Shown here one piece after another: positions 10,481 through 45,674 of a stretch of 64,000 nt of DNA. A model generated the notes under the pieces. That model was not told the origin of the DNA. It did not search any database and saw only the letters and a list, made by a program, of their open reading frames with translations. A program made the translations under genes and the position numbers. The stretch lies in NCBI GenBank assembly GCA_037968875.1, contig JBBKWI010000085.1, forward strand, positions 1,072 to 65,071. Direction: 5' to 3'. Positions within the stretch are counted from its first letter, which is position 1. Each line of letters starts with the position of its first letter. The stretch is from Candidatus Sericytochromatia bacterium (lineage in GTDB: Bacteria > Cyanobacteriota > Sericytochromatia > UBA7694).

Positions 10481-12035
10481 GGGTTACCCAGAGTGTATTT
10501 TCACCTTGCTCAATCGAGTGTTGCTGATGTATACCCAGCCCAATTTTATTCCAGTCTGATAGGGTTAAAATTTCCAGCTGTTTTTGGAGTTTGCGGATGC
10601 AATCTTCTAAATTATTGGCGCTTAAAATCAGGGTGCTCATTTTTTGGTAATAGCCCCCATTTTTTTGATAGCGTTGAGAAAAGTCCAGGCCTTCAACAGA
10701 ATATTGCAAGAGGTCTTGCCTGGCCATCAGCCGGGAATGGATCAGGGCTTGCTGTGCAAATAAATTTTCATCAATCAAACCAGGGGTGTTATCCTGGGCG
10801 CGCCAGCGATTGATTTGCTCAATGATATCCTGGCGGACTTTGGCTATATTTTGAGGGGGTTGCTTGGTTTGGAACATTTGGGTAATGTAAAATTGTTGGC
10901 CATTAAAATAAACGCCCATGCCAATGTGGGTAAAGTCGCGCTGCAATATATTTGCCCGATGGCCGGGACTTTTCATGAGTTGGTTAAAAGCGTTAGAAAT
11001 AGAAACATCAAAGGCGATATTCTCCCCGACCTGACCATAGCCGCCTTGTTTACGAAAGCGTTGATTGGGATCATCCCGATCGGGATTAACATGGGCAAAA
11101 TAATTTCGTTTAGACATATCTTCGCTATGTTTAAAAGCGACGAAATTCAGGCGTTTATCACTTGCCAGGGCCGAAAGCCCGTGCTCTTGGCGCACTTTAT
11201 TCACACGTTGCAATAAGAATTCCACTGCCTGTCCAGTATCTTCAAAGCGATTGACCTGATTGGACTTGAGCTCACCTTTTAAAGGGTATGGCTGCCCGAC
11301 AAATAGAGGTAAAATTGTTGCTACACGTGGTCCCTGACGTGCTTGATTGACCAAAAGCTCAACTGTATATTCACCCGTTCGCGTAAAAGGAATAGCGAAA
11401 GTATATTGATTCCCCTGATGGCTCTGTGGTTTAAAAGTCGTCACATGACCATCAGGGAAAGTCACTGGCATGCGAGGTGTTTTAAAACCGGGTCTGAGCT
11501 GGGTATTGACTTTGAGGGTTTGAGCGCGAGGCAACGTACGCGGTAAGCTTTTGATTTCAGCGAGATATTCGAGCAGGATCACCGTTGCCCAGAGGGCTTT
11601 GCCAGATTTGGGATGATTCCCTGTTTTGAGACCGATAGCAATATGGGTTGCTTCTTTAGAAATGAGAGCAGGATTGCTTTTTAATTGATCAAAGATATCT
11701 TGTGGCGTATAACCGATGGCGATAAAGCGGTGCTGGGCGCGGCCAGAGACGCGGGCGTAACCCAGTTGATAGTCCAGACTACCGCGTTGAGGAGAGTCTA
11801 AATCAAAGAATTGATTTTTCTCCATGTCCTGGCTATGTTGCCTGGCCACTTGCTGTGCGGCTGAGTCCAATTGCAAAGTGGCTATGTTTTGGCTGCGACG
11901 GTAACGATTAACGAGATTAATCAATTGAAATTCAAGAGTTTGATTCTCAATTTGCGCACTGGCGGGCAGTGCAAAACATAATATAAGTAATAGTGGCAGG
12001 AAAATTCGCATCAGACCGGTTATTCGCTCCAGCAA
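10461..12035 (-). CDS. Secreted protein with three CAP (SCP/PR-1/YkwD-like) domains
   Basis: ORF of 524 aa with a signal peptide. CAP-like modules recur three times; the clearest is 'HSEDMSKRNYFAHVNP...GENIA...SPGHRANIL...FTHIGMG'. Confidence 0.6.
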   Translation of the reverse strand: MLERITGLMRIFLPLLLILCFALPASAQIENQTLEFQLINLVNRYRRSQNIATLQLDSAAQQVARQHSQDMEKNQFFDLDSPQRGSLDYQLGYARVSGRAQHRFIAIGYTPQDIFDQLKSNPALISKEATHIAIGLKTGNHPKSGKALWATVILLEYLAEIKSLPRTLPRAQTLKVNTQLRPGFKTPRMPVTFPDGHVTTFKPQSHQGNQYTFAIPFTRTGEYTVELLVNQARQGPRVATILPLFVGQPYPLKGELKSNQVNRFEDTGQAVEFLLQRVNKVRQEHGLSALASDKRLNFVAFKHSEDMSKRNYFAHVNPDRDDPNQRFRKQGGYGQVGENIAFDVSISNAFNQLMKSPGHRANILQRDFTHIGMGVYFNGQQFYITQMFQTKQPPQNIAKVRQDIIEQINRWRAQDNTPGLIDENLFAQQALIHSRLMARQDLLQYSVEGLDFSQRYQKNGGYYQKMSTLILSANNLEDCIRKLQKQLEILTLSDWNKIGLGIHQQHSIEQGENTLWVTLGLASN

Positions 12036-12142
12036 AACAGCGTTACTAGGCCGATTATATCAGACCTTCAACCCTCGATAAAAGATAGATAGGGGGTTTT
12101 TTAGAAGGGCTGTCCAAAGATAAGATAGTTTAAGAGTCCAAA

Positions 12143-12763
12143 TTGATGCAAAAGGAAGAGCTTTTAATGAAACAAATTCAATGGCAGCGAATTGCCCCGA
12201 TTTCACTTGCGGGAGGAGTGCTTGCCGGGATCTGGTTTTATAAGTCTAGCCGGGCGCGTGCCCAGCAGGAGTCTCAAGAAATTGTTGACCACGTTGATTT
12301 GCGACGCCTGATGGGAACCTGGTATGAAATTGCACGTTTCCCGAATCTATTTCAAAAAGAGGACTGGGTCGGGGCAACAGATAATTATTATCCCCAGGAG
12401 AACGGAGAGATTGAAGTGATCTACCGTTACCATGAAAAACAGTTTGATGCCCCGCTAAAAGAAATCAAAGCAAAAATGTGGCGTGAGCCCAAAGATGCGC
12501 CAAGTGGCAAATTTAAGTATCAGGCTTTGTGGCCCTTTACTGTAGATTATTGGGTGATTGAATTGGGTACGGAATATGAGTATCTGGTGATTGGCTATCC
12601 CAACCACAATATGCTATGGATTATGTCTCGCACTCCGAGTCTGGACGAAGGCACTTACCGAGGCATTTTAGAGCGTGTAGCTAATCAAGGCTATGATGTG
12701 TCTAAACTGATCAAAGTCCCCCAGCCCAGTCATGCCAGAGCGATTTTAGCTCCTACGCCTTAG
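12143..12763 (+). CDS. blc: Bacterial lipocalin (Blc-like)
   Basis: ORF of 206 aa with 'LRRLMGTWYEIARFPN', the structurally conserved lipocalin region. Confidence 0.7.
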   Translation: MMQKEELLMKQIQWQRIAPISLAGGVLAGIWFYKSSRARAQQESQEIVDHVDLRRLMGTWYEIARFPNLFQKEDWVGATDNYYPQENGEIEVIYRYHEKQFDAPLKEIKAKMWREPKDAPSGKFKYQALWPFTVDYWVIELGTEYEYLVIGYPNHNMLWIMSRTPSLDEGTYRGILERVANQGYDVSKLIKVPQPSHARAILAPTP

Positions 12764-23712: not shown

Positions 23713-24351
23713 TCAGCCGATTTTCTCTAAGCGCTGCTCCAGGGCCTCACAAAATGTATCAAAATCTGGTCCAACCAGATCTTTTTGACAGACGTCAACG
23801 GCCAGAAAAGGGATCGTCGTGGGACCACGCTGCAAGCGCTTGAGCCAGGAGCCATAGAGCGTATTGATTTCGGCCAAATAATCCAAATCAATTTTTTGTT
23901 CGTATTCACGCCCACGCTGTTTGATCTGCTCTTGTAAGCGTTCAGTTGTGGCGTGTAAATAGAGAATTAAATCTGGGGGATGCAGCAAGTCAGTCACGGT
24001 AAAAAACAAACGGCGATAGTTTTCGTACTGGCGACTATTGATATAACCCCGCTGGTATTGATGCTGAGTAAAAATATGAAAATCTTCATAGATTGAGCGA
24101 TCGTGAATCACATTGGTGCCGGACTTGATGATCTTTTCGATTTCTTTTTGCTGAGCCACTCTTTGACCCAAAAAATAAACCTGCATCTCAAAACAGATTT
24201 CAGGACCTTTGCCAGCGTAATAATCGGCCAAATAGGGATTGTCATCGAGGTGTTCATAAAAAGCGTGGAAATGGTATTTATCCCCCAGGCGGCGCGTTAA
24301 AGTAGACTTTCCGACCCCGGTGGTACCGGCCAAAACAATATAGAGTGACAT
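23713..24351 (-). CDS. Deoxynucleoside kinase
   Basis: ORF of 212 aa with the P-loop 'LAGTTGVGKSTL' and a dNK-family body. Confidence 0.7.
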   Translation of the reverse strand: MSLYIVLAGTTGVGKSTLTRRLGDKYHFHAFYEHLDDNPYLADYYAGKGPEICFEMQVYFLGQRVAQQKEIEKIIKSGTNVIHDRSIYEDFHIFTQHQYQRGYINSRQYENYRRLFFTVTDLLHPPDLILYLHATTERLQEQIKQRGREYEQKIDLDYLAEINTLYGSWLKRLQRGPTTIPFLAVDVCQKDLVGPDFDTFCEALEQRLEKIG

Positions 24352-24543
24352 GGCATGCTCCTGTGTAGTGGGAGTATCAAAACAAATATTTTTTGACCTG
24401 TCAAGCGCGAGACTTTAAGCGCAAAAATCTGGGTTTAAGTATTTATGTAGACTAAGGAGACTTCAGGTTAAGGCCAAAGCGCAGATGCCCTGCAAGCGCT
24501 TTGCAGAAAGCTGTTTTGCTAGCTACAATACTAGCAACAGACC

Positions 24544-25731
24544 ATGATTGGATACCCTGGAGGGCATAAATCAGCAATGCGCATCATTCTTTACACAGGC
24601 AAAGGCGGCGTCGGCAAAACGACGCTCTCAGCCGCTACTGCCTTAAAATCAGCCCAAATGGGTCACCGTACCCTGGTGATCAGTACTGACCCGGCCCATT
24701 CACTCTCAGATTCTTTTGATCAAGCGATCGAAGCCGAGCCCACGTTATTGGCTCCCAATCTCTGGGGGCAAGAAATCAATGTCTTGAAAGATATTCAGCA
24801 TTATTGGGGCGAATTGCAAACCTCATTGTCGGCCTTACTCGTGACACGGGGGTTTGATAATGTAGTCGCTGACGAATTAGCTGTCATGCCCGGTATGGAA
24901 GAAGTTGCGGCCTTGCTGCATGTCGATGAAAAAGCCGAATCGGGTGACTATGACGTCATCATTTTAGACTGTGCTCCCACGGGAGAAACGATTCGCTTGA
25001 TCAGTATGCCTGATGTGATTGATTGGTATTTGGAGCATTTGTTTAAAATGTCTTTCAAGCAAGCCGGAATTTTTGAACCCGTGATTAAAACGGCCCTGGC
25101 GCTCCCAACCCAGGCGATCTCAAAATCTTTTGAAACGCTCTTTGCTGGAGTCGCGCGCGTCCAAAAACGATTGCAAGACCCAGCCCAAAGCTCGATCAGA
25201 GTGGTGATGACTCCCGAAAAAATGGTGCTCAAAGAAGCTTTGCGGTCTTTTAGCTATTTCTCACTGTTTGGCTATAATGTCGATGCTGTGTTGCTCAATC
25301 GGGTGGTCAAAAATGTAGAAGACTCCCAGTTCCTGCGGACGATGCAAGAAATGCAAAAAGATTATATTGCCCAGGCCCAAACTAGCTTTAGCCCGGTGCC
25401 GATGATAGAATTGCCGTTAATCGCGGGTGAAATTGTCGGCATAGACGATTTAAGAATCGTGGGCAATACCGCTTTTGCTGAGCATGACCCGACCGATATT
25501 TTGTTTGCGGGCCAGGTACAAGAAGTGATTAAGCTCGACAAAGGCTATCTCTTGCGCCGGCGCTTTCCCAAATTCGAAATTGAAAAGTTTGATTTACGCA
25601 AAAAAGGCGACGAGCTGATTCTGACTGTTAATAATGTGCGCCGTTCGATTATTTTGCCCAATACCCTTTCGCAATTGGAGCCCAGTGGAGCCGTTTTTAA
25701 AGATGGAGCACTTGAGATCCGCTTTGAATAA
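24544..25731 (+). CDS. ArsA/Get3-family ATPase (single-domain)
   Basis: ORF of 395 aa with the deviant Walker A 'TGKGGVGKTT' and 'VISTDPAHSL'. The likely true start is the ATG at ~24580. Confidence 0.7.
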   Translation: MIGYPGGHKSAMRIILYTGKGGVGKTTLSAATALKSAQMGHRTLVISTDPAHSLSDSFDQAIEAEPTLLAPNLWGQEINVLKDIQHYWGELQTSLSALLVTRGFDNVVADELAVMPGMEEVAALLHVDEKAESGDYDVIILDCAPTGETIRLISMPDVIDWYLEHLFKMSFKQAGIFEPVIKTALALPTQAISKSFETLFAGVARVQKRLQDPAQSSIRVVMTPEKMVLKEALRSFSYFSLFGYNVDAVLLNRVVKNVEDSQFLRTMQEMQKDYIAQAQTSFSPVPMIELPLIAGEIVGIDDLRIVGNTAFAEHDPTDILFAGQVQEVIKLDKGYLLRRRFPKFEIEKFDLRKKGDELILTVNNVRRSIILPNTLSQLEPSGAVFKDGALEIRFE

Positions 25732-25796
25732 GTGCCAATTGACAGCAACTTGACTCACAGGTTTTGATCTAAGGTAAGAGATTCATCAAAAGGAAA

Positions 25797-26204
25797 ATGC
25801 ATATGCCAGATAAGATTCAAAAATCCGAGCAGGAATGGAAACAAGAACTGAGCCCTGAGCAATTTAAAATATTGCGCGAAAAAGGGACGGAGCAGGCTTT
25901 TACGGGTAAACTCACAGATAACAAAGCCGAAGGCACTTATATCTGCGCCGGCTGTGGACAGTCCTTGTTTGATTCAGAGAGCAAGTATGACTCGGGCTCA
26001 GGTTGGCCCAGCTTTTATCAAGCCAGCAGTGACGAGGCTGTCGCTACCGAGTCTGATAACAGTCTGCTGATGAAGCGTACGGAAGTGCTTTGCTCACAGT
26101 GTAATGGCCACCTGGGGCACGTTTTTCCAGATGGTCCGCAACCCACGGGTCAGCGCTATTGCATCAACTCAGCGTCCCTGGATTTTAAGCCGAAAGCGGA
26201 ATAA
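25797..26204 (+). CDS. msrB: Peptide-methionine (R)-S-oxide reductase
   Basis: ORF of 135 aa with 'CAGCG' and '[12 protein letters not shown]', the zinc CxxC pairs of MsrB, plus the catalytic Cys. Confidence 0.85.
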
Positions 26205-26401
26205 TTCACTTCGCTCGATTTTAAGATTTATCCAGAGTAGTTTTTGCTAGCAAAGACCTCTGGATTGTCTATTTTTTGTACTAATAATTTTAACTAAAAT
26301 CATAAAATTAGAATAAAAACCCTATTAAAAGCCGAATATACCCCTAGCTTTTATAAGCGACTCTCGCCTATGCTAAAAGCATCACAACAAGGGGATTATT
26401 T

Positions 26402-27058
26402 ATGACAACACCAAACTCAGATCAACTAGAGAACCGTCTTTACCGCTGGTATCGTCGTGGCATGTATGGCTTTGGCGTTGTCGTTGGCGCAGCCATTATT
26501 TCAGGCACCTGGCTGGGTTTGCAGATGGTTCAAAAACATGACCAGGTTCACCGACCTCAGACGCAAGTCAAGGTTTCTGAGCGTGGGGAAAATAGCGCTA
26601 ACCCTTTTCAGGAAGCACGTACAGTTGAATTTAAGCTGCCTTATATGCATGGCGCAAATGCCTATACCCTGCGCTATATGAGCCAATTGGCACAAAACCC
26701 TAAAACGACTAATAAAAATGGCTTTGTTGTTGAAGCTGAGTACCGCTCAGGCAGTATCAAACAGAAAATTGATTTAAACTTATCTTGTGAACATGCCCTG
26801 TGTGAAATGAGCTTTAAAATGCCTTCGCGACTGGTGTTGACTCCACGCTATGACGGGCGACGCTTTGTTTATCCCCAACGGGAATTTGAAGTTCATGCCC
26901 AGGATATCGTTTTCGAAGTTGAGAAGTCCAAGCTGGTCGGTATTGCTAAAAATGATGCCAAAGAGATGGCTCTTTTTGATTCTGAGCTCAATTTAAAGCC
27001 CTATTACAAAGAGTTTTACTTTGACCGGGAGGGTAAATGGCTTAAAGCCAAAGGCTAA
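26402..27058 (+). CDS. Hypothetical membrane-anchored protein
   Basis: ORF of 218 aa with one N-terminal transmembrane segment. I recognise no domain. Confidence 0.35.
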   Translation: MTTPNSDQLENRLYRWYRRGMYGFGVVVGAAIISGTWLGLQMVQKHDQVHRPQTQVKVSERGENSANPFQEARTVEFKLPYMHGANAYTLRYMSQLAQNPKTTNKNGFVVEAEYRSGSIKQKIDLNLSCEHALCEMSFKMPSRLVLTPRYDGRRFVYPQREFEVHAQDIVFEVEKSKLVGIAKNDAKEMALFDSELNLKPYYKEFYFDREGKWLKAKG

Positions 27059-27091
27059 GCTTTTTACCTGGAAACACGGGCAAAGCGCAGT

Positions 27092-27862
27092 TTAGGACTG
27101 TGGCTTTGTCCATTCGCTTAAGACGCCTGTTGATTCAAACTTAATCCATTTGCCATAGAAAAAAGTGAGCTCTTCGTAGAGCTTGACCATGCCCACACCC
27201 GGCGCGTACCAATAATAGAGATAGTCTTCTTTGCCGTTAGCATATTGTTTATGGTGCTCGACTTTGATCGTTTCAAAACGTCCAGCGGGAGTCTCCAAAC
27301 TTTCAGGGCCGACGACACGAATCGTCTCTGTGCCGCCCTGAAAAACACGACCTTCCCAGGGTTTACCAGGGTCAAAGGGAGATTTTAAGACCGTGACATA
27401 TCGGTAGTCAGACCCTTCACTCAGGCTTTGATCTTGCTCGAGTCCAAAAGCAGACACGACAGTTTCTTGATAATGAGAGAGTTCAACGCGATCGCCGTAA
27501 CGTCTGACGAGAGTTGGCTTGGGCATGATTGTGGAGTCTGGATAAGAGCGACGCAATACAGCCTGGATGACGGGTCCTTCATTGGGTAACGCTTCGGCCC
27601 GCATTTGCATGCTGCGAAACTTGGTTTTGGGCTCACCATTTTGACGCTGCTCTAAGCTATATGTCCAACTACGCCCAGGCTCTACAGGATAGTAGCTTGC
27701 CAGGAGGTCTGCACTGGAGAGTTGTTGCAGAGCAGGACTCTGAATCGGCTGGCGGGCAGTATTTGACTGATGTTGCTGTTGACAAGCGCTGATGCTTAAC
27801 AGCAGGGCAGTGGCGATTGAGATCTTTAAGCTTTTCATAATTACCTTATCCTTGGTTGCCAT
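27092..27862 (-). CDS. Hypothetical lipoprotein
   Basis: ORF of 256 aa with a signal peptide and the lipobox 'LLLSISAC'. Its start overlaps the 3' end of the upstream oxygenase-like gene. Confidence 0.4.
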   Translation of the reverse strand: MATKDKVIMKSLKISIATALLLSISACQQQHQSNTARQPIQSPALQQLSSADLLASYYPVEPGRSWTYSLEQRQNGEPKTKFRSMQMRAEALPNEGPVIQAVLRRSYPDSTIMPKPTLVRRYGDRVELSHYQETVVSAFGLEQDQSLSEGSDYRYVTVLKSPFDPGKPWEGRVFQGGTETIRVVGPESLETPAGRFETIKVEHHKQYANGKEDYLYYWYAPGVGMVKLYEELTFFYGKWIKFESTGVLSEWTKPQS

Positions 27863-28607
27863 AAACTTCTCGGGCGGGTCTGAACAAGACCCAGGAGGTC
27901 AATATATATTTATCATTTGACAAAGGAATATGTCCTTTGTGGGTATGGGTAAACCCTGAAGGAGCAAAGACCAGGCGACCCCGGTTTGGTTTTAAGAGGC
28001 GCTGCTGATAGTAAAACTCAGTTTCTCCGCCTTCACGCACGTCATTCAGATAGTACATAAACAAGAGTACCCGGTGCAAGGAATCACAATCGGGATCATG
28101 CATCGCAGGGTAATTCTCAGAATGAAAGTGGTGATAGCCCCCCTGGCGGCGATCGTATTTTTGCAGATTGATCGTGCCCAGTCGATAGACTTTTTGCATC
28201 AATTGTTGCAAAGTGCGATCCGGCAAGCTTTGAATCACTGCCTGGGTAATGGGCATTTGCTGACCCGTTTGCGGATCCGGGACCGACATCGCAATCGCGC
28301 CGGTTAATAAATGGGGGTATTCACGGATGTATTTCACCAGCATCTGCTCGGTGAGGTCTGCAATCTTAGCTGCTTCGTTTGCCCAGTCAGAGTCTGATGA
28401 GATATTAATGTCTTGACTGTCTTTGGCGCTGGGGTTGTGACCATGGCCGGTTACGCCTGCTTTTTTTTGGCGACTGCGTTCAAATTTTTTGATCAGCTGC
28501 TTACAGTCTTCTGCTGCTAAAACCTGATCATAAAGCCCAATAAAATCCTGCACCATGACAACCTTTGCCTGAAATCTCTGGGAAGCCTGTCTGAAACAGA
28601 TCCTCAT
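27846..28607 (-). CDS. 2OG-Fe(II)-oxygenase-like protein (tentative)
   Basis: ORF of 253 aa. 'HHFHSE', a distal 'THTHKGH' and 'RGRLVF' resemble the HxD/E...H...R triad of 2OG oxygenases. The start codon overlaps the stop of the radical-SAM gene (ATG/TAA sharing 1 nt). Confidence 0.4.
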   Translation of the reverse strand: MRICFRQASQRFQAKVVMVQDFIGLYDQVLAAEDCKQLIKKFERSRQKKAGVTGHGHNPSAKDSQDINISSDSDWANEAAKIADLTEQMLVKYIREYPHLLTGAIAMSVPDPQTGQQMPITQAVIQSLPDRTLQQLMQKVYRLGTINLQKYDRRQGGYHHFHSENYPAMHDPDCDSLHRVLLFMYYLNDVREGGETEFYYQQRLLKPNRGRLVFAPSGFTHTHKGHIPLSNDKYILTSWVLFRPAREVYGNQG

Positions 28608-30493
28608 TAATTAGACGTATTGTACACCGAAACGACATGATCGTAAGGCAAGCCGCGCCAATCTCTGACCAGATCTCTGGGCCCGTTTTGTAGGGGGACA
28701 TTTTTTTCAAGTAATGCCCCCTGATAGACTTCCCATAAATTTGAATTCACAGTCAAACGAAAATGCTGGTCATCCAACACTGCTTGTTGTATTTTTTTGG
28801 ACAAGAGCAAGCTGTCTTTGAGTATATTTGTGGGCAGACTTTTGTGATTCTGAGCTAAAAGATTTTCAAAAGCCGTTTGTACCTCAGAGAAAAACTGTTG
28901 CCAGGCACCACTTTCTTGTAAGCCAGCGGTCAAAAAGTCCTCGACAGCCATCCACGAAAGTTGCCCTTTAAAAGGAGCGGGGCAAAACTCTGCTTCCCCA
29001 GATTGAATCCGCACGGATTTGTTTTTGATAAATGACTGAATATCTTGGAGCAGGGGTTGAGCTTGGAAATTAGCCCGCATAAAAAACAGAAATATATCTG
29101 TATAAGATATGTTTGCAAATTGTCGAATCAAGACAATCGGTATCTGTAAAAGTTTACGATTGAAGTAAATAAACACTGACCACCAAACGATTTCGCGACA
29201 GAGACTCCAGTCGGATACACTGAGTGTGTCTGTGCTGATGACCATTTCGATACTCTCAGCAATCTCAGATTCTACCGGGCCAAGGGGCTCTATACAAAGG
29301 GTTTGTACCGTTTTTATACCGTGTTCTTTGCGGTATTGGGGTTGTGCCATGGCGGCATTGGGTAGCAAAAAGACATTGTAAAAACGGATCTGATGATGTT
29401 GGCCTTCTTCGATGACCTGATTTATACCTTCACAAAAACTTTTGAAAGTTTCTCCAGGTAAGGCAATCAGAATATCGGTATAGGTCCTGACCTGGTCATT
29501 CCGAAAACGCAGTTGTAATTCTCGATAGCTTTCCAAAGAAATATTATCGCGCAAAATATTTTTAAGAACCACAGGATTAACCGATTGCAGCGAGAGGGTC
29601 ACAGCCCGATTTAAACCAGATTGAGCAAGCTGCGTTTGAATTTGATAGGCTCTTTCGGTCATGTTTTTGGTATTTTGAATATTAAACTCTAACGGAGCAT
29701 GGTGCTCTTTGTTAATCGTGACAATTCGATCTGTAATCTCTAAATCACGCGGTAGCATCCCGAAATTCGCATCACAACAAAATATCTGGTTGATTTTATT
29801 TTTGCCAAACCATTCAATTTCTTGGGTCAGCCGCTCCAGTCCAAAGCGATTCACCTTTGCGGCAATCGCGGAGCCCCAATCACAGTAAGCGCAAGAAAAG
29901 GGACAGCCCCGATTGGTTTCCCAGAGCGCTGACCACTGCGTTCCAGGACGTTTTTTCAAGATCGGTTCAAAAAGACCCAATAAATAAGGGGAGGGAATCT
30001 GGTCTAAATCACGTAGTCGCTGGCGCGGAGCTAGACTTTGAAATTGGCCTTCTAAATCAATCCACGAGACGCCTGCGATTCCCTCTGGTGAGTCTGGCCA
30101 GGCTTCGAGCATTTCCAAAAATGCAACTTCACCTTCACCCTGACAAACCCAGTTGACCCAGGGGTGTTTGCGTAAGAAAGATTCAGCCTGGTCTGGTATC
30201 TGCGGGCCCCCCATGATAATCAAGGTTTCAGGGCGGTTTTTTTTGATTTCCTGAGCTAAACTTAAGGCATAGTTGATGTTCCAGACATAACAGGAAAAAG
30301 CGACGATATCAGCGAGTCGTGTTTGTGGCAAGACTTCAGCTATAGGGTCCCGCTCAAAAATAGTGGGCATAAAGGTAAATTTGGTGCTGTCGATAGCATG
30401 GCGTAAGACATAAGCTTGTAATAGACCAGCAGCATAAGGCAAATAATTTCGTTGTAACAAGGGCTGGTTGATCTGCACCAACTGTACAATCAT
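28607..30493 (-). CDS. B12-binding-domain radical SAM protein with a C-terminal DUF4080-like region
   Basis: ORF of 628 aa with an N-terminal cobalamin-binding Rossmann-like region, the radical-SAM cluster motif 'GCPFSCAYCDW' and a tail of about 250 aa. Confidence 0.7.
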   Translation of the reverse strand: MIVQLVQINQPLLQRNYLPYAAGLLQAYVLRHAIDSTKFTFMPTIFERDPIAEVLPQTRLADIVAFSCYVWNINYALSLAQEIKKNRPETLIIMGGPQIPDQAESFLRKHPWVNWVCQGEGEVAFLEMLEAWPDSPEGIAGVSWIDLEGQFQSLAPRQRLRDLDQIPSPYLLGLFEPILKKRPGTQWSALWETNRGCPFSCAYCDWGSAIAAKVNRFGLERLTQEIEWFGKNKINQIFCCDANFGMLPRDLEITDRIVTINKEHHAPLEFNIQNTKNMTERAYQIQTQLAQSGLNRAVTLSLQSVNPVVLKNILRDNISLESYRELQLRFRNDQVRTYTDILIALPGETFKSFCEGINQVIEEGQHHQIRFYNVFLLPNAAMAQPQYRKEHGIKTVQTLCIEPLGPVESEIAESIEMVISTDTLSVSDWSLCREIVWWSVFIYFNRKLLQIPIVLIRQFANISYTDIFLFFMRANFQAQPLLQDIQSFIKNKSVRIQSGEAEFCPAPFKGQLSWMAVEDFLTAGLQESGAWQQFFSEVQTAFENLLAQNHKSLPTNILKDSLLLSKKIQQAVLDDQHFRLTVNSNLWEVYQGALLEKNVPLQNGPRDLVRDWRGLPYDHVVSVYNTSN

Positions 30494-30715
30494 GGCGAAC
30501 CTTTCTGATACTGGGTTAAGCTCATTGTAATCTTTAGTCTACGATATTCCAAACCCAAAGTCGGCCATTTCATGTGGAATCAAGATAATTCGCTACAAAG
30601 TAATTAAAATAGACTAAGCAATTTGGCTTGAAACTGTATTGGCAATGCTTGAGATCAAGACCGTAACTGTGTTATAGTCAGTTCATTAATTTTGCAAGGA
30701 GAATGATTTTTTAAC

Positions 30716-32047
30716 TTGGACCCTGACAGTAGTGGCCAATTGGGTGGCATCATCGTAACCCTCGTTCTTTCGATTTTTTTCTCAGGCTTAATTTCAGCCT
30801 ATGAAGCAGCTCTTTCTCATTTATCTAGCATTCGACTAGAAAAACGAGCAGATGATGGCGATCAGAAATCAGCCTATTTGCTTGAACTCATTCAATCCCC
30901 CCATCAAACCCTGGTGACCCTGATGATATCAGATTGGTTGGCAGATGTAACCGTCCTGGTTCTGGGCTCCTGGTTGATGTTTCATTATGTCGATGCCTGG
31001 TGGAGTGTGCCCCTGGCAATCCTGATCTTAACGCCCAGCCTCTTGATTATGGGCGAAATTATTCCCAAAACTATCGCCACTCATTTTGGTGAGCGCTTTG
31101 TTTATGCCTGGCTACCGCTGCTTAAACTCTTATTGATGGTCTTTTCTTTGCCTGTGCGCTCGTTGTCTTTTATTACCCGGCCTTTATTGGAATCGGTGGG
31201 CTCAGGTCTGGGGCAGATTGTGCCTGATTTCACCGAAGATGAGATTCTGCAAATGGTCAATATGAGTGGTAATACAGGATTGCTGGATAAAGACGAAACT
31301 GAGTTGGTACAACATGCTTTAACCTTTGATGATACGCCCGCTAGCGCTGTCTTAAGCCCTCGCGTGGATATGGTCTGTGTCGAAGATACGGCCTCTCTCA
31401 AAGATGCCCTTGAAATCATGGCTGGCGTTGAAGGCTATTCACGATTGCCCGTCTACCGTGACAATCTCGATAATATTGTGGGTCTGGTCTATATCAAAGA
31501 TTTGGTGCGGATCCAACAAATGCAGCCGGAGCGTATTTCAGAGCCTGTCAGTGCCCATTTAAGAAAGGTACATCACATCCATGAATACCAATCGATTGAT
31601 GTGGTACTCAAAGAGATGCAAGCGCGTCGTATGTCGCTCTTTATGGTGACGGACGAATATGGTGGCACGGTTGGCTTGATCACGATGGAAGACTTGCTCG
31701 AAGAAATTGTAGGCGAGATCCATGACGAGTTTGATCATGATGAAGAAGAGCCGATCCAAACCATTGACAACCATACTTTATTGGTAGATGCGCGGGTGAC
31801 CGTGACCGAAGTGAATGAATTGCTGGATTTAAATTTACCCAATTCGCAATCAATTGCTGGTTTGGTTTTTAGTACTTTAGGCGAAGCTCCCAAAGCAGAC
31901 CAGATCCTTCAAATTGATCAGGTGCAATTGCATGTGGTTGAAATGGATGGCATTCGAATCATGCGGGTTCGTATTCATAAACTGACCGAAGCTGAGTGCA
32001 AAGCACTGGACCAGGAATTAGATACTAGTCCCCAGAGCTTAAGTTAA
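30716..32047 (+). CDS. CNNM/HlyC-family transporter-associated protein (DUF21 – CBS pair – CorC_HlyC)
   Basis: ORF of 443 aa with N-terminal transmembrane segments, tandem CBS domains and a C-terminal CorC/HlyC domain. The start is a TTG with AAGGAG upstream. Confidence 0.7.
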
Positions 32048-32158
32048 CCCCCCTTTTACTAGTGTTCTAACTTGCCACAATCATTGGCAACGAATGTTTG
32101 AACCCGGAGACTGACTCTGGGTTATACTGCCAGTATTATTAACATTTGAGGTAAGACA

Positions 32159-33076
32159 ATGCAAAAAGGACAAACGGTTTCAATTATCGGTGCGCCTTTA
32201 GATTTGGGCGCAGGCCACCGGGGCGTGGATGCAGGGCCTTCTGCTTTTCGGATTGCCGGTCTCGAGCAAGCGATCACAGCAATGGGTTACCCTGTGATTG
32301 ACGAGGGCAATATTGCGGTCGATATTCCTGAGTCATTGCATGTTGGTGAAAGCAATGCCAAGTTTTTAGAAGAAATTACCAAGGCTTGTGATGCTCAGGC
32401 CAGAAAAGTTGCTGAAGTCCTGGCCCAGGGACATTTCCCTCTGGTACTGGGAGGCGATCACAGTATTGCAATCGGTACGATTGCGGGCATGAGCCAGCAT
32501 TACCGCGAGCAGAACCAGAGCATAGGCGTGATTTGGGTTGATGCCCATGCGGATATGAATACCCCGGATACTACCAAAAGTGGCAATATTCACGGGATGC
32601 CCTTGAGTGTTTGTCTGGGCTATGGGGCAGAATCTCTGATCAATCTGGCGGGATTTACGCCCAAAATTAAAGCCGAAAACGTGGTTTTAATTGGGATCCG
32701 AGATCTGGACCTGGAAGAAAAAAAACTAGTCAAAGAAACGGGTGTGAAAACCTTTACCATGACTGATATCGATGAACTGGGCATGCCTGCCGTGATTAAA
32801 GAAGCGATTGCGATTGCTAACACGGGCACCGCAGGTATTCATTTATCATTTGATTTTGATGGCCTCGATCCTGAGGTCGCCCCCGGCGTAGGAACGCCTG
32901 TTAAAGGGGGGATACGTTATCGCGAAGCCCATTTGATTATGGAGAAAATTGCCTTAACGGGTCGACTGATTGGTTTGGAGATGGTGGAACTCAATCCGAT
33001 CTTGGATGTGCGCAACAAAACCGCAGAATTGGGTGTTGGCTTAATTGAGTCTGCTTTTGGTAAACGTATTCTATAA
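32159..33076 (+). CDS. rocF: Arginase (ureohydrolase family)
   Basis: ORF of 305 aa with 'GGDHSIAIG', 'DAHADMNTP' and 'SFDFDGLDP', which are Mn-binding motifs. Confidence 0.8.
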   Translation: MQKGQTVSIIGAPLDLGAGHRGVDAGPSAFRIAGLEQAITAMGYPVIDEGNIAVDIPESLHVGESNAKFLEEITKACDAQARKVAEVLAQGHFPLVLGGDHSIAIGTIAGMSQHYREQNQSIGVIWVDAHADMNTPDTTKSGNIHGMPLSVCLGYGAESLINLAGFTPKIKAENVVLIGIRDLDLEEKKLVKETGVKTFTMTDIDELGMPAVIKEAIAIANTGTAGIHLSFDFDGLDPEVAPGVGTPVKGGIRYREAHLIMEKIALTGRLIGLEMVELNPILDVRNKTAELGVGLIESAFGKRIL

Positions 33077-33102
33077 GCTTTAAGTGTTTTAGACAAAACA
33101 AA

Positions 33103-33132
33103 GAGGCCCTGACTCAAGTGAGTCAGGGCCTC
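33103..33132. terminator. Bidirectional intrinsic terminator between convergent genes
   Basis: Perfect 12-bp stem GAGGCCCTGACT / AGTCAGGGCCTC with a 6-nt loop. It is T-rich downstream on the minus-strand reading (TTTGTTTTGTCT) and weaker on the plus strand. Confidence 0.5.
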
Positions 33133-33154
33133 TTCAATTATCTGTTATTTAGGT

Positions 33155-33766
33155 TTAAGCTTTAGAGAACTTCAGGGTGGTGCTGCCACGATCCTGTAAT
33201 TCTTGTTGCAGGCTGGGCTGAACGACGTCGACTTCAAAGTAGCCAGAGCTGCCGGCACGCACGGTGAGTTTTTCAACTTCTCCGCCCTTACCCATTTCAA
33301 AGACGGTGGTAGTACCTGACTGAGTATAGGTGCCAATAACTTCTACAGTACGATTATTTTTAAAATCTATTGTTTTGAAGCTAACGCGATTGGCATCAAG
33401 ACGAATGGCTTCGACAATCAGGTGATGAGAAGCAATTGCAAATTCGAGTTTGAAAGCATCTGGGGTGATATTGTGGACCATGCCGTCACCTTTATACCAG
33501 AGGGGGCCTTTGACTTTCAGTTTGTCGCCATTTTTGAAGCCAGAGACTGCAACCAGTGGGGCCGTTGCGCGAGGGGCGTTAAAGGCTTGCAGGGGGCCAG
33601 CAGGGCCACGGTTTGCCAAAATGGGAGTGGACTGACAAGCACTCAATAATAAAGCAGAACCTATAGTGAATAAAGCAAGTGTTTTTGACTGACGCATAAC
33701 GAACCTCTTATCTGAATTTAAACCAATCTTAATCTTTATGTTATCCTTTAGCAGCGCTGTTGTCAA
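33155..33766 (-). CDS. Hypothetical lipoprotein
   Basis: ORF of 203 aa with a signal peptide and the lipobox 'LLLSAC'. Confidence 0.4.
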   Translation of the reverse strand: MTTALLKDNIKIKIGLNSDKRFVMRQSKTLALFTIGSALLLSACQSTPILANRGPAGPLQAFNAPRATAPLVAVSGFKNGDKLKVKGPLWYKGDGMVHNITPDAFKLEFAIASHHLIVEAIRLDANRVSFKTIDFKNNRTVEVIGTYTQSGTTTVFEMGKGGEVEKLTVRAGSSGYFEVDVVQPSLQQELQDRGSTTLKFSKA

Positions 33767-33856
33767 TCCCCGCTCAGGTTATTTTGGCTGTAAATGATCG
33801 AAATTGAACGATAATAGCACTCGAAAATAAGGCTTTAGCCCAGAAAGTGGTCCATC

Positions 33857-35488
33857 ATGAACGATGCTTATCAATATCAGAATGGTTTTCATGTGCTTAA
33901 ATTGCAAGGCTCAGAAACAGAAATGGGCTATCAACATGGCAAACTCTTACGCACAGCGATTCAGGCCGGTGCGATTCCTTATTTTAAAGAATACCTGCCG
34001 CGTGTTTTGCAGCCCAGCCTGGGCAAACAAGGAGCTAAAGCATTACAGCAAATGCTTTATCAAACGACGGGTAAGCGTCTTTTAAAGGCCTTTCCAGACT
34101 ATTTTCGCGAACATATGCGGGCCCTGGCTGAAGGCGCAGATCTCAAAGAGCAAGATGTCGCTCAGGCCTTTGTTTTGCCTGATCTGTTTCTGTGGCTTGT
34201 CTCCAAAAGCAATGGCCGCCATTTAGATTTAGCCCCAACCCTGGGCTGTTCGACAGCTTTTGCTCAGGGAGAAGCTAGCCAGGGCACAATGTTACATGCT
34301 CGTAATCTGGACTATATGGGTGTCGGACATTGGGATGCACAACAGGCGATTCTTTTCCACAAACCCGATCAGGGCATGCCTTTTGTCTCTATTAGTAGTG
34401 CCGGTGTGCCACTCGGTGGCATTACTTCGATGAATCAGGCCGGTTTGACTTTGGCGGTGCATCAGCATTTGTCTTGCTTAAATATCAAATTGGGGGGGAC
34501 GCCGATTGGGATCGCGGGAGATCAGGTCATGCGCTATGCCAGCACCCTGGCAGAAGCCGTTCAGATTTTAGATCGCTACCCGCCCAATGTTTGCTGGACC
34601 TATCTGATTGCTTCAGCTGAAGAAAATGCCCTGCTGTGTTATGAAACCACAGGCACTGCTTCTCGTTGGTTTATTGAGCGTGGCGAACGCTTTGCCTATA
34701 CCAATTTTTATCTTGATCCCGAATTACAAGCTCAGGAAACCCATCTCTACCCCAGTCAGTGGCGCTCAAATTTGGGGCGTTACCAGACGATTTGCCAGAC
34801 CCTTGAAAGCCAATCCGGTCAGATTGATGCCAATACAATGGCGAGTGTCCTGGCCAGTCCGGGGCACAAAAATTGCCGTCTGGCACAGCCCTTATCGATG
34901 TTATTTACGGTCTCGTCTGTGGTGTTTGAGCCTCAGGCTCGCCGTTTTTATGTGGCAAATGGACCCGCACCGACTTCTCAGCGGCTCTATTGGGGCTTTG
35001 ACCTGGCCACAGAGTCTGCACTCGATCTTCCCGCTCTGACGGGGGGGCTGGCTGACCCAGAAGCGGATCGGGCCTTCTCAGCTTATCGTCAGGCCTATAT
35101 TTATTGGTTTGAGCAGCGTAATAAGGTCCAGGCTCTGCTGGCAATGGAGCAAGCTGCGGAACTGGCACCGCGAGAGTCGATTTATGCTTATATGGCGGGT
35201 TTAATAGCTTTAGATAAACAGTCGCCTGACCTGGCCATTCATTGGCTCAACAAAGCACTTAACCTCGGCCACCCGGATCCCCAACGCTGTAGTGCTTTTC
35301 GTTTGTGGCGGGCCCGCGCTTATGATTTATTGGGCTTGCGCAAACAAGCGCGAGCGGATTATCAGCAGATCAGCGGGCAAACAGCGGATATACGTGTCAG
35401 TAAAGCTGCTCAAAAAGGCCTGGCTCAGGCCTGGCGCTGGCGTGCGCTTAGTATTGAATTTAACTATGCCGACCTGATGGCTGCCTGA
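33857..35488 (+). CDS. C45-family (acyl-CoA:6-APA acyltransferase-like) N-terminal nucleophile hydrolase with C-terminal TPR-like repeats
   Basis: ORF of 543 aa. 'TLGCSTAFAQG' resembles the autoproteolytic Gly-Cys site, and the C-terminal helical repeats look TPR-like. Confidence 0.5.
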   Translation: MNDAYQYQNGFHVLKLQGSETEMGYQHGKLLRTAIQAGAIPYFKEYLPRVLQPSLGKQGAKALQQMLYQTTGKRLLKAFPDYFREHMRALAEGADLKEQDVAQAFVLPDLFLWLVSKSNGRHLDLAPTLGCSTAFAQGEASQGTMLHARNLDYMGVGHWDAQQAILFHKPDQGMPFVSISSAGVPLGGITSMNQAGLTLAVHQHLSCLNIKLGGTPIGIAGDQVMRYASTLAEAVQILDRYPPNVCWTYLIASAEENALLCYETTGTASRWFIERGERFAYTNFYLDPELQAQETHLYPSQWRSNLGRYQTICQTLESQSGQIDANTMASVLASPGHKNCRLAQPLSMLFTVSSVVFEPQARRFYVANGPAPTSQRLYWGFDLATESALDLPALTGGLADPEADRAFSAYRQAYIYWFEQRNKVQALLAMEQAAELAPRESIYAYMAGLIALDKQSPDLAIHWLNKALNLGHPDPQRCSAFRLWRARAYDLLGLRKQARADYQQISGQTADIRVSKAAQKGLAQAWRWRALSIEFNYADLMAA

Positions 35489-43569: not shown

Positions 43570-44925
43570 ATGTCAACTGTTTTAGAAACACCCACCCCCA
43601 CCGAAGTCGGCACCCAAACGGTTCATATTGAGACCCTGGGTTGTCAGATGAACAAATCTGACTCCGAGAAAATGATGGGTCTGCTGGCCAAAGATGGCTA
43701 TAGCTGGACCGATGAACTTGAGACTGCTGATTTGATTCTAATCAATTCGTGCAGCATTCGTGAAAACGCCGTTAATCGCTTGATCGGTCATCTGGGCCGT
43801 TTAAAAGGGCTCAAAAAAGCGAGACCCGAATTGATTATTGGTGTTGGCGGCTGTGTGCCCCAACACGAAAAAGAAAACCTGCTCAAGCGCGTACCGCATT
43901 TGGATCTGGTTTTTGGTACCCATACCTTTCACCAATTGCCTGAGCTGGTCAAAGAATTCAAAGAGACCCAGCGTCCGATTGTCTCGATTGTGCGTCAATT
44001 AGAAGATTACCCCGAAGATATCCCCGTGATTCGGGAAGGCAAACATCACGCCTGGATCACCGTGCAACATGGCTGCTCGGCCTTTTGTACTTTTTGCATT
44101 GTGCCCTATACCCGTGGCCAACAGCAAAGCCGTACCATGGAAGCAATCGCAGAAGAAGTTCGCAAAGTAGCCGCCGAGGGTTTTCAGGAGATTACCTTAC
44201 TGGGCCAGAATATCAATACCTACGGTTGGGATCTCGACGAAGCCAGCTCACTGGGTCAATTACTGCATTATATCCATGACATTGATGGCATCAAGCGCAT
44301 TCGTTTCTTGACCTCGCATCCGATCAATATGCGCGATGACCTGATCGACGCAATTGCTGACTTGCCCAAGGTTTGCGAGTTTTTACACTTGCCCTTACAA
44401 GCAGGCCACGATGCTGTTCTCAAACGCATGCGTCGCAATCACACCGTAGAATACTATGCTGAATGGGTCGAGAAAATTCGCGCCAGAATCCCAGACATTG
44501 TGCTGACCTCAGACTTTATCGTCGGTTATCCCGGTGAGACCGAAGAGCAGTTTCAGGGCACGATTGACTGTGTCAAACGCTTTCGCTTTGATACGGCCAT
44601 GACAGCAGCTTATTCTCCGCGTCCCCGCACCCCAGCGGCGATGTTTACGGATCAGGTCCCTGATGAAGATAAAAGTCGCCGTTTGCAAGAGCTGAATGTG
44701 GTTGTTAAAGATATGTCTTTACAACAGAATCGCCGCCACTTGAGTTGCGTTGAAGAAGTCATGGTAGAATCTTATGACCCCAAACGGGAGCGTCTGAAAG
44801 GGCGGACCCGTGGCAATAAAATTGTCCATTTTGAAGGGAATCCCCGTTTGGTGGGTGAATTTCTGGACGTAAAAATTATGGATGCCACCCCGCAAACCCT
44901 GCGCGGTCGCATCATAGTTACTTAA
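43570..44925 (+). CDS. miaB: tRNA-i6A37 methylthiotransferase
   Basis: ORF of 451 aa with the MTTase N-terminus 'ETLGCQMN', the radical-SAM 'CSAFCTFC' and a TRAM domain. Confidence 0.85.
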
Positions 44926-44936: not shown

Positions 44937-45674
44937 ATGGTTAAACAATCGATTCTTGCAGGAACATTGGCTCTGAGCCTGCTTGCATGTTCAGAGCGCC
45001 AGGAAAATGCTGGCAGCAATAGTACTGAAAATTATTCTGCTACCGAGTCACAGACCGGCAGCAGTTCACATAGCAATGAAGGAAATGTAATTACAATGAC
45101 AGATAAAGTTAAAGAAGTCGTCGTCACCGAAAAAGGTGTTAAAGAAATGTATGCCATGATGGAAACAAGTCTTGGTATGATTAAAATCAAGCTGTATCAC
45201 AAACGTGCGCCCAAAACTGTGGCGAACTTTACGGGCTTGGCTGAAGGCACCAAAGAATATATCGACCCCAAAACTGGTGATAAAACCAAAGGCAAATTTT
45301 ACGACGGTATTATTTTTCACCGCGTGATTCCTGACTTCATGATTCAAGGTGGAGATCCTTTAGGCAAAGGAACTGGCGGCCCTGGCTATCAGTTCGAAGA
45401 TGAGTTCCATAAAGAGCTGAAGCACAGCAAAGCCGGTATTTTATCTATGGCAAACTCTGGCCCCAATACCAATGGCAGCCAGTTCTTTATTACTGATGCC
45501 CCCACACCTCACCTGGATAACCGTCATTCGGTTTTTGGTGAAGTGGTTGAAGGCATGGACGTGGTAAATAAAATTGCCCAGGCCAAAAAAGATTCGATGG
45601 ACAAACCCAAAGAAGAAATCATGATCAAACACCTGACAATCGAACGTGTCATGGACGACGCAACCAAAAAATAA
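44937..45674 (+). CDS. ppiB: Cyclophilin-type peptidyl-prolyl isomerase, lipoprotein
   Basis: ORF of 245 aa with the lipobox 'LLAC' and '[15 protein letters not shown]...[17 protein letters not shown]'. Confidence 0.8.

Follow-up and report, generated by a model that had tools for sequence, protein, structure and literature searches.

A lineage-specific pair of genes for a predicted cobalamin-dependent radical-SAM enzyme and a prolyl-4-hydroxylase-like oxygenase in Sericytochromatia

Gene order and start codons at the locus

Three genes on the minus strand of the window (the whole stretch of 64,000 nucleotides that was analysed) encode a radical-SAM protein, an Fe(II)/2-oxoglutarate (2OG) oxygenase and a lipoprotein, and a divergent CNNM gene lies upstream of them (Table 1).

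Table 1. Features of the locus, with start codons as corrected in this study
Feature	Position	Strand	Description or basis
Radical-SAM gene	28607..30493	-	predicted cobalamin-dependent (class B), 628 aa, TokK/CysS/KedN5-type three-domain architecture
Untranslated spacer, 50 nt, with oxygenase ribosome-binding site GGCAAAGG	28557..28606	-	junction comparison
Fe(II)/2-oxoglutarate oxygenase gene, 236 aa (corrected start)	27846..28556	-	homologue N-termini, PF13640
DUF3108-like lipoprotein gene, 248 aa (corrected start)	27092..27838	-	PF21347, L081 homologue start
Promoter-like site TTGGAA-17 nt-TACAAT	30524..30552	-	consensus scan only; putative operon promoter
CNNM/CorC-family transporter gene, divergent	30716..32047	+	Pfam CNNM, CBS, CorC_HlyC

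The three open reading frames of the initial annotation are present as the longest ORFs of the minus strand, at 28607-30493 (628 aa), 27846-28607 (253 aa) and 27092-27862 (256 aa). Read in this way, the first two have nucleotide 28607 in common and there is a 17-nt overlap between the second and the third; co-translation had been argued from these overlaps. The homologues speak for other start codons. All oxygenase homologues are about 235 aa long with the N-terminus M(x)DFI, the database copy of the window gene has 236 aa, and a GCAAAGG-type ribosome-binding site is conserved 5' of every homologue start (the radical-SAM/oxygenase junctions compared were those of the window, L081, L082, L170, L171, L001 and L002, the L numbers denoting related loci). 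We therefore place the oxygenase start at ATG 28556, 50 nt past the radical-SAM stop. As the lipoprotein homologue of L081 has 248 aa and begins with MKTLKI, the lipoprotein start is placed at ATG 27838, 7 nt past the oxygenase stop; AAGGATAAGG is found upstream of it. Judging from these comparisons, both overlaps are start-codon artefacts of taking the longest ORFs. Translational coupling via overlap was rejected, as the homologue N-termini and the conserved ribosome-binding sites shift both starts.

The genes are still closely packed on the same strand after the correction. A site scan detected no terminator-like site at either junction and neither a promoter- nor a terminator-like site in the 50-nt spacer. 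The only promoter-like site upstream of the radical-SAM gene lies in the 222-nt spacer to the CNNM gene, so transcription of the operon may start from a region common to both directions. Between 24000 and 34000, there is no credible Rfam family or riboswitch, including a cobalamin riboswitch 5' of the radical-SAM gene. A small-ORF search and the junction comparison gave no conserved precursor-peptide candidate, in agreement with the initial annotation; the sole candidate for a leader or precursor peptide near the locus, a 27-aa ORF at 30490-30573, has no conserved counterpart in L081.

Enzyme classes and catalytic residues

Pfam searches with a reporting threshold of E<=0.01 upheld the domain architecture expected for all three proteins: B12-binding (PF02310, 1.1e-10, residues 60-127) and Radical_SAM (PF04055, 4.1e-9) in the first, 2OG-FeII_Oxy_3 (PF13640, 1.9e-9) in the second, and DUF3108_like together with a lipobox in the third. 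The radical-SAM protein had been labelled DUF4080-like. At this threshold, B12-binding and Radical_SAM are its only matches, and as the C-terminal DUF4080 domain is missing from them, we dropped its membership in the DUF4080-containing radical-SAM proteins.

The closest characterised relatives are methylases of antibiotic pathways. A sequence search matched the protein to TokK (PDB 7kdx, E=1.5e-94, residues 15-468) and to CysS (8.5e-56), and Foldseek comparison of its AF2 model (pLDDT 86), C-terminal domain included, gave a TM of 0.83 to TokK and of about 0.73 to CysS. The best NCBIfam match is the KedN5 C-methyltransferase family NF033712 (289.9 bits, model positions 3-463 of 624), with a score that is far under the 700-bit cut-off and leaves the protein outside this family. 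As in TokK/ThnK (PDB 7kdx, 7kdy; carbapenem C6 alkylation), an N-terminal Rossmann-type cobalamin-binding domain, which in the model superposes on the Cbl domain of TokK, is combined with a radical-SAM core and a large C-terminal domain. The CxxxCxxC motif for the [4Fe-4S] cluster (C197-x3-C201-x2-C204) is invariant in 13 relatives, across which CDANFG, SLQS, GLPGE and the Trp of SCYVWN (W71) are also conserved. W71 is the equivalent of the lower-axial Trp76 of TokK, and W206 that of TokK W215. Identity to TokK amounts to about 27-28% over the structural alignment. While the catalytic core is intact, substrate contacts of TokK/ThnK (the carboxylate-binding Arg280 and Tyr410/Tyr652) are replaced: N271 stands in the place of Arg280 and C400 in that of Tyr410, and the C-terminal region is not alignable by sequence.

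Together, the sequence and structure matches suggest a cobalamin-dependent radical-SAM enzyme of the class B methylase clade, whose characterised members TokK, CysS and KedN5 C-methylate unactivated carbons (CysS and KedN5 by iterative methoxy methylation, for cystobactamid and kedarcidin). They bear out the methylase-type assignment of the initial annotation, with methyl transfer itself proposed by analogy. Class B methylases transfer the methyl group via methylcobalamin and generate 5'-deoxyadenosine and S-adenosylhomocysteine in each turnover; the B12 radical-SAM enzymes OxsB, ThnL and BchE are non-methylases.

That TokK, CysS and KedN5 belong to antibiotic pathways might suggest a secondary-metabolite gene cluster, and matches of the radical-SAM protein to the PADLOC candidate PDC-M51A (1.1e-33) and of the oxygenase to a generic "CAS-associated 2OG" model might suggest anti-phage defence. 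The PADLOC matches, however, reflect generic domains and fall short of the scores for TokK and KedN5. The flanking genes are housekeeping genes without pathway context (PFK, dNK, ArsA, MsrB, arginase, CNNM, topoisomerase), no NRPS, PKS, carrier protein, resistance, carbapenem or other defence genes and no enediyne context were found around the locus, and the locus is syntenic across its clade rather than island-like. We consider both possibilities highly improbable. A second radical-SAM gene in the window (43570-44925) is of the MiaB/RimO type.

The oxygenase had been called tentatively, and the call proved correct. Its AF2 model is confident (pLDDT 92.4, pTM 0.90) and folds as a double-stranded beta-helix. 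The top Foldseek matches are prolyl-4-hydroxylases (P4Hs) and their relatives, namely PBCV-1 vCPH, the Bacillus anthracis and Chlamydomonas P4Hs, Pseudomonas PPHD and human PHD2 (TM 0.5-0.63; probability 1.0 to many P4H structures), with which the model also shares the N-terminal helical extension; PDB sequence matches to P4Hs are at about 1e-3, and phrog_61 is matched at 4.3e-34. H145-x-E147, H204/H206 and K216 are invariant in an alignment of 48 sequences and align with the metal/2OG region of the B. anthracis P4H, providing the His-x-Asp/Glu...His facial triad and the basic residue for the 2OG C5-carboxylate; the window protein has H-x-E where the B. anthracis enzyme has H-x-D. No NCBIfam family was assigned. 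The protein is thus predicted to be a P4H-like Fe(II)/2OG enzyme, with a kinship to P4Hs that does not go beyond the superfamily (13-20% identity). A phage origin was rejected despite the phrog_61 match, since there are only three viral relatives (two at 27-28% identity, one partial).

Conservation of the pair and its neighbours

The radical-SAM and oxygenase genes are adjacent on the same strand in seven inspected lineages (the window, L081, L001, L002, L082/83, L170 and L171), with gaps of about 4-76 nt, and four further matches hint at additional paired loci. On the tree, the paired radical-SAM proteins form one Sericytochromatia clade that has diverged to about 50% identity, and the pair is kept where the upstream flank differs (L002, L171). 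The initial annotation had asked whether the radical-SAM gene always occurs alone in relatives: it is paired in these seven lineages, but alone in the syntenic sister clade (L003-L007), in L176 and in all 73 more distant genome loci, none of which has the oxygenase. Within the paired clade, L175 is an exception: a GT41 gene comes after its tandem radical-SAM genes, and the oxygenase is missing. Conversely, of 79 metagenome loci that carry the oxygenase and are more distant, none has the radical-SAM gene nearby. Real but confined to one lineage, the adjacency has a single evolutionary origin on the tree and so counts as one observation that was retained by descent. The most conserved neighbour of the radical-SAM clade is the CNNM gene, adjacent and divergent in L081, L001, L003-L007, L082, L170 and L175; it serves as a synteny marker, functional partnership aside.

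Both families extend well beyond the pair. The radical-SAM family is present in at least 557 species genomes; distant members lie in nucleotide-sugar-type clusters, and TPR-GT41 genes precede the radical-SAM genes in L013 and L017. A literature search for links between B12 radical-SAM enzymes and nucleotide-sugar or LPS clusters found nothing relevant. In the wider radical-SAM family, 10 of 80 loci contain a gene of PhyH, a 2OG oxygenase family different from that of the window protein; ThnQ of the thienamycin pathway is also of PhyH type, in contrast to the P4H-type oxygenase of the window. The latter has at least 598 relatives, which usually stand alone, for example those of Simiduia, Hyella and one further Sericytochromatia genome. 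It is solitary in the 79 metagenome loci as well, where no conserved partner emerged and the recurring features are housekeeping genes syntenic within a lineage and tandem duplications.

The lipoprotein is not supported as a member of the functional unit that had been proposed. It resembles DUF3108/DUF3108-like exported proteins in its PF21347 match (1.3e-7), which covers its C-terminal third only, in weak PDB matches (4fvs, 3fzx) and in a lipoprotein signal peptide with the lipobox ISAC at residues 16-19 (MKSLKISIATALLLSISAC). It adjoins the pair only in the window and L081, and a MOSC gene fills its position in L001, L002, L082, L170 and L171, so that the three-gene arrangement does not recur in relatives beyond L081. 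The roughly 50 homologues, of which the named ones are from Sericytochromatia, Blackallbacteria or Cyanobacteriota, have unrelated contexts elsewhere (the one inspected lies beside DUF420 and GT2 genes). Given this non-conserved linkage, the lipoprotein was rejected as a partner of the enzymes; it is a recent, lineage-specific neighbour that is probably co-transcribed with them.

Within Sericytochromatia, MOSC is the steadier partner of the oxygenase, with the window and its nearest relative alone having the lipoprotein instead; there is no MOSC gene elsewhere in the window. Oxygenase and MOSC genes are translationally coupled, with overlaps of 1-20 nt, and in L084/85/89 and L169 they occur without the radical-SAM gene. 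The gene upstream of them may encode a GT41 or a TPR protein, with GT41 directly upstream in Blackallbacteria. In other lineages, the surroundings of the radical-SAM/oxygenase/MOSC arrangement repeatedly include genes for GT41 glycosyltransferases, WD40 proteins and amine oxidases. A longer operon as in L082 (PALP, DUF512 radical-SAM, DOT1 methyltransferase) was rejected, since neither the window nor L001 or L002 has these genes.

The GT41 genes and the P4H fold raise the question of protein modification: the oxygenase would hydroxylate a protein residue, and the radical-SAM enzyme (elsewhere GT41) would modify the same protein further. The best structural matches to the oxygenase are without exception protein prolyl hydroxylases, and GT41 genes accompany either enzyme in Blackallbacteria, L175, L013 and L017. 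The GT41 enzymes characterised to date are, as far as is known, all protein-modifying. The likeness to P4Hs is, however, confined to the superfamily level, and the close radical-SAM relatives use small molecules. RiPP methylase models reach at most 68 bits (as against 290 for KedN5), no precursor gene lies beside the radical-SAM gene as in a RiPP maturation cluster, and neither a conserved small ORF nor an obvious target gene is found nearby. We judge this explanation to be quite unlikely.

Possible joint function of the two enzymes

Neither gene depends on the other: sister and distant radical-SAM loci lack the oxygenase, and the metagenome oxygenases lack the radical-SAM gene. A two-step function shared by both enzymes, as originally suggested, is therefore plausible for the paired clade only. 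Within this scope, we favour a lineage-specific operon of two tailoring enzymes for C-methylation and subsequent hydroxylation of one non-peptide molecule, with a probability of roughly 0.45.

Alternatively, the two genes may be neighbours by descent: the radical-SAM gene (with CNNM) and the oxygenase-MOSC genes would be separate units with substrates of their own, juxtaposed once. The single origin of the adjacency fits this account, as do the retention of CNNM without the oxygenase in L003-L007 and L175, the coupled oxygenase-MOSC genes without the radical-SAM gene, and the solitary state of most oxygenase relatives. Yet the pair has outlasted sequence divergence (down to about 50% identity), a changed flank on the upstream side (L002, L171) and the swap from MOSC to lipoprotein, and what separates the two genes is a short gap in which no terminator- or promoter-like site was detected. 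Moreover, the logic of methylase followed by oxygenase is established in the closest characterised pathway, that of thienamycin, where a B12 radical-SAM methylase, ThnK, builds the C6 ethyl group and an Fe/2OG oxygenase encoded with it, ThnQ, hydroxylates it (PMC6097109). Descent alone is an explanation to be taken seriously, although we would not call it probable.

In a joint pathway of methylation and hydroxylation, SAM would be cleaved reductively at the [4Fe-4S] cluster, by analogy with the relatives, to give a 5'-deoxyadenosyl radical. This would take a hydrogen off an sp3 carbon, and the resulting substrate radical would pick up a methyl group from methylcobalamin in the Rossmann domain. 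The methylation may be iterative, as it is for TokK, CysS and KedN5. The oxygenase would then hydroxylate the same molecule, with ThnK and ThnQ as precedent for the order of steps. Both crystallised radical-SAM homologues bind pantetheinylated substrates, and the substrate is most likely a small molecule linked to pantetheine or a nucleotide, or else a glycan unit, produced elsewhere in the genome; it is neither a carbapenam nor a precursor peptide. The ancestral gene order would have been radical-SAM, oxygenase, MOSC, with the lipoprotein gene having taken the MOSC position as a bystander in the window lineage.

A bolder proposal, which we regard as rather unlikely, is that the cassette of radical-SAM, P4H-like oxygenase and MOSC genes carries out an undescribed Sericytochromatia modification outside classical clusters. 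It would place a hydroxy-alkyl branch, made by iterative C-methylation and hydroxylation, on an envelope glycan or on a primary metabolite linked to pantetheine or a nucleotide, or produce a methylated and hydroxylated (elsewhere glycosylated) protein residue.

At present, the locus is an ordinary example of two tailoring enzymes, both uncharacterised, whose linkage is restricted to one lineage. All characterised TokK/CysS/KedN5-type methylases that we know of come from actinomycete and myxobacterial antibiotic pathways, and here a relative of TokK type is encoded among housekeeping genes in a cyanobacterium that is non-photosynthetic. If the pair forms one pathway, it would offer a compact two-gene handle for heterologous expression, toward the role of the family outside secondary metabolism. 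Should the cassette proposal be true, a TokK/CysS-type methylase would for the first time have a physiological role outside antibiotic production.

Gene starts and packing

The initial annotation had described an overlapping operon of a radical-SAM gene (gene 1), an oxygenase gene (gene 2) and a lipoprotein gene (gene 3), and an ORF listing of 24000-34000 reproduced the three reading frames exactly. As longest ORFs, genes 1 and 2 have one nucleotide in common and genes 2 and 3 overlap by 17 nt, but both overlaps vanish when homologs are used to fix the starts. The oxygenase is 236 aa long in the database copy, its homologs have about 230-245 aa (120 of 120 among the matches listed), its N-terminus is M-x-DFI in an alignment of 48 sequences, and a GCAAAGG-like ribosome-binding site is kept upstream of this start in the window and in the related loci L081, L082, L170, L171, L001 and L002. 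Homolog length, alignment start and conserved ribosome-binding site together place the start at 28556, 50 nt past the radical-SAM stop. For the lipoprotein, the homolog in the nearest relative (L081) has 248 aa and the N-terminus MKTLKI, which places the start at 27838, 7 nt past the oxygenase stop; with this start, the protein carries MKSLKISIATALLLSISAC, a standard lipobox. Close packing on one strand persists after the correction. Neither junction contains a terminator-like site, a single promoter-like site lies upstream of the radical-SAM gene, and no Rfam elements were found near the locus. Elsewhere in the window, 151 nt are shared by the longest ORFs of RNase HII and a VTT-domain membrane protein, probably through start-codon over-extension as in the oxygenase and lipoprotein genes.

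Coordinates of features in the window and in homologous loci (L-numbers)
Locus	Feature	Position	Strand	Remark
window	radical-SAM gene, longest ORF	28607-30493	-	628 aa
window	oxygenase gene, longest ORF	27846-28607	-	253 aa
window	lipoprotein gene, longest ORF	27092-27862	-	256 aa
window	promoter-like site	30552-30524	-	
window	PADLOC match PDC-M51A	28607-30493	-	1.1e-33, 115 bits
window	CNNM/CorC-type gene	30716-32047	+	divergent
window	218-aa protein	26402-27058	+	convergent to lipoprotein gene
window	ArsA/Get3-like ATPase	24544-25731	+	adjoins MsrB
window	RNase HII / VTT-domain protein	45674-46291 / 46141-47124	+	
L082	oxygenase-MOSC pair	8001-9517		
L084	oxygenase-MOSC pair	8001-9559		
L169	oxygenase-MOSC pair	6001-7528		
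L170	oxygenase-MOSC pair	6001-7572		
L171	oxygenase-MOSC pair	6001-7504		
L084	GT41 gene	6405-7964		
L175	GT41 gene	10427-12526		
L175	tandem radical-SAM paralogs	5100-8935		

The two enzymes

The radical-SAM protein matches only B12-binding and Radical_SAM in Pfam; the DUF4080 label first attached to it found no match there and is wrong. In NCBIfam it scores best against the KedN5 family (methylcobalamin-dependent C-methyltransferases), where 290 bits against a cut-off of 700 make it a relative rather than a member. Among solved structures it is closest to the antibiotic-pathway methylases TokK (E=1.5e-94, residues 15-468) and CysS (8.5e-56). Its AlphaFold model (pLDDT 86, poor only in the cluster loop and the C-terminal tail) fits TokK with a TM of 0.83 over about 650 columns, including the C-terminal domain, which in the TokK authors' account differs from its counterparts in TsrM and OxsB; the TM is about 0.73 for CysS and about 0.5 for OxsB and TsrM. 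C197/C201/C204, W71 and W206 are invariant among relatives, and W71 corresponds to the lower-axial Trp76 of TokK, in an SCYVWN context common to both. However, the alignment replaces the carboxylate-anchoring Arg280 of TokK with N271 and Tyr410 with C400. The shared fold and invariant residues, taken with these replacements, argue for TokK-like catalytic machinery acting on a substrate other than a carbapenam.

The assignment of gene 2 to the 2OG oxygenases, at first tentative, was confirmed. The protein belongs to PF13640 and is modelled as a double-stranded beta-helix (pLDDT 92.4), with prolyl 4-hydroxylases as top structural matches (vCPH, B. anthracis P4H, Chlamydomonas P4H, PPHD and PHD2; TM 0.5-0.63, 13-20% identity). 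Its invariant residues, H145-x-E147, H204/H206 and K216, correspond in the alignment to the part of B. anthracis P4H that binds the metal and 2OG, and the active sites of both enzymes are intact.

Gene neighbourhoods

The nearest named homologs of all three proteins come from Candidatus Sericytochromatia, Melainabacteria or Blackallbacteria. Gene order is conserved: L081 (72% identity) matches the window, lipoprotein included, the oxygenase lies directly downstream of the radical-SAM gene in L001 and L002, the closest relatives in our genome scan, and contig look-ups gave the same order in L082/83, L170 and L171. The radical-SAM proteins with a linked oxygenase group as a single clade in a neighbour-joining tree, and L175 is the sole unlinked member of this clade; L176 and the syntenic sister group L003-L007 branch outside. 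Oxygenase genes are absent from L175, where tandem radical-SAM genes are followed by a hypothetical gene and a GT41 gene, and from L176, where a WD40 gene and an amine-oxidase gene precede the radical-SAM gene. The sister group (48-49% identity) has divergent CNNM and dNK neighbours as in the window, and no oxygenase within 3-10 kb downstream of the radical-SAM gene (L004 being uninformative). Because the linked proteins form one clade, the adjacency must have arisen once, and it has been retained despite protein divergence to about 50% identity and a change of both flanks.

What stands of the proposed three-gene unit is thus a real, clade-restricted pairing of radical-SAM gene and oxygenase, without the lipoprotein. 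This DUF3108-like protein occupies its position, elsewhere that of a MOSC gene, only in the window and L081; its approximately 50 homologs lie on other contigs (named sources: Sericytochromatia, Blackallbacteria or Cyanobacteriota), and one inspected homolog adjoins DUF420 and GT2 genes. It is a recent neighbour, outside any conserved unit. The 218-aa protein encoded 33 nt from its gene has no match in Pfam, NCBIfam or PADLOC, and L081 alone among the loci compared encodes a homolog (84% identity).

Within Sericytochromatia, the steadiest partner of the oxygenase is a MOSC_N+MOSC gene directly downstream (L001, L002, L082, L084/85/89, L169, L170, L171), often with an overlap of 1-20 nt. The oxygenase keeps this partner more faithfully than it keeps the radical-SAM gene. 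The window has no MOSC gene. We know of no function on record for the combination of a 2OG oxygenase and a MOSC protein. The gene upstream of the oxygenase varies (radical-SAM gene, GT41 gene in Blackallbacteria, or TPR protein in L169), and the oxygenase stands alone in Simiduia, in Hyella and in another Sericytochromatia genome. The family has at least 598 metagenome relatives, and none of the 79 more distant loci examined (42-51% identity) has a radical-SAM, MOSC or GT41 gene nearby. The main rival explanation is synteny without shared function: sister lineages make it plain that neither gene needs the other, the oxygenase is bound more tightly to MOSC, and the adjacency goes back to a single evolutionary event.

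Several metagenome contigs (L101, L104, L107, L110, L138, L142, L145, L147, L157) carry two to three oxygenase copies, adjacent or nearly so, in several cases near dxs, ispA and glycolate-oxidase-like genes. GT41 (O-GlcNAc-transferase-like) genes recur beside the oxygenase-MOSC pair or radical-SAM paralogs (also in L013, L017, L022, L034, L040 and L064), and a WD40 gene paired with an amine-oxidase gene lies beside oxygenase-MOSC in L084 and beside a radical-SAM paralog in L176. These recurrences may be traces of ancestral synteny, or they may mark a functional set that is dispersed. Modification of a protein by the two enzymes would fit the P4H fold of the oxygenase and the repeated occurrence of GT41 genes near both, but we consider its probability low.

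The most conserved neighbour of the cobalamin-dependent enzyme is the CNNM/CorC-type gene (Mg/Co efflux family; window, L081, L001, L003-L007, L082, L170, L175), and in L169 a HupE/UreJ gene (Ni/Co transporter family) lies between CNNM gene and oxygenase; a cobalt link to the enzyme is speculative. The remaining flanks are housekeeping genes (PFK, deacetylase, dNK, ArsA-like ATPase, MsrB, arginase-family enzyme, Na/H exchanger, topoisomerase subunit, MiaB/RimO-type enzyme), and these surroundings contain no NRPS, PKS, carrier-protein or sugar-nucleotide gene. The ArsA-like ATPase has a C-terminal HSP20-like domain (ArsA_HSP20), and its pairing with MsrB is syntenic in L081. A defence or antibiotic cluster is disfavoured by this housekeeping and syntenic context, and the PADLOC hits are generic. 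The radical-SAM protein matches the PADLOC "phage defence candidate" PDC-M51A; as the locus has no defence context, we judge the match to be generic B12 radical-SAM similarity.

The radical-SAM family reaches many phyla, with relatives in at least 557 species-representative genomes, of which 80 loci were analysed. The 73 loci at 38-44% identity (Proteobacteria, Elusimicrobia, Nitrospirae, Planctomycetes, Verrucomicrobia and others) are mostly nucleotide-sugar-type clusters. Neighbours among the 80 include NAD epimerase/dehydratase (43), transketolase-like enzymes (31), GHMP kinase (29), nucleotidyltransferase and E1 thiamine enzymes (22 each), DegT aminotransferase (16), PhyH dioxygenase, a different 2OG oxygenase family (10), and TPR-GT41 (6). 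An aldo/keto reductase lies directly downstream in 29, in what looks like an uncharacterised conserved pair among L010-L080. Radical-SAM paralogs are tandem or clustered in L175, L029 and L032 (both on contig CAJYHH010000625.1), L024, L025, L027 and L077, and the Sericytochromatia MAG JADMKE has at least three copies on separate contigs.

Proposed function

Of the possible readings, the one with the best support is an operon, specific to this lineage, that encodes a pair of tailoring enzymes; the genes would be co-transcribed and the enzymes would share a substrate. As in its relatives, the radical-SAM enzyme would use a 5'-deoxyadenosyl radical to take hydrogen from an sp3 carbon, with methylcobalamin giving a methyl group to the substrate, possibly repeatedly; iterative methylation is a hallmark of TokK, ThnK, CysS and KedN5. 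Hydroxylation of this product by the oxygenase would follow. A precedent for such alkylation followed by hydroxylation is thienamycin biosynthesis, where the C6 ethyl built by ThnK is hydroxylated by the 2OG oxygenase ThnQ (PMC6097109). Because both crystallised homologs bind pantetheinylated substrates and the wider family is associated with nucleotide-sugar genes, the putative substrate that we favour is a small molecule linked to pantetheine or to a nucleotide, or else a glycan unit. A peptide is disfavoured, since the scores against RiPP methylase models reach only 68 bits and, in agreement with the initial annotation, no precursor ORF is conserved nearby.

Each protein is an uncharacterised addition to a well-known enzyme class, and their pairing has precedent. 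The locus is chiefly of value because it gives compact access to the large family of TokK-like enzymes outside antibiotic pathways.
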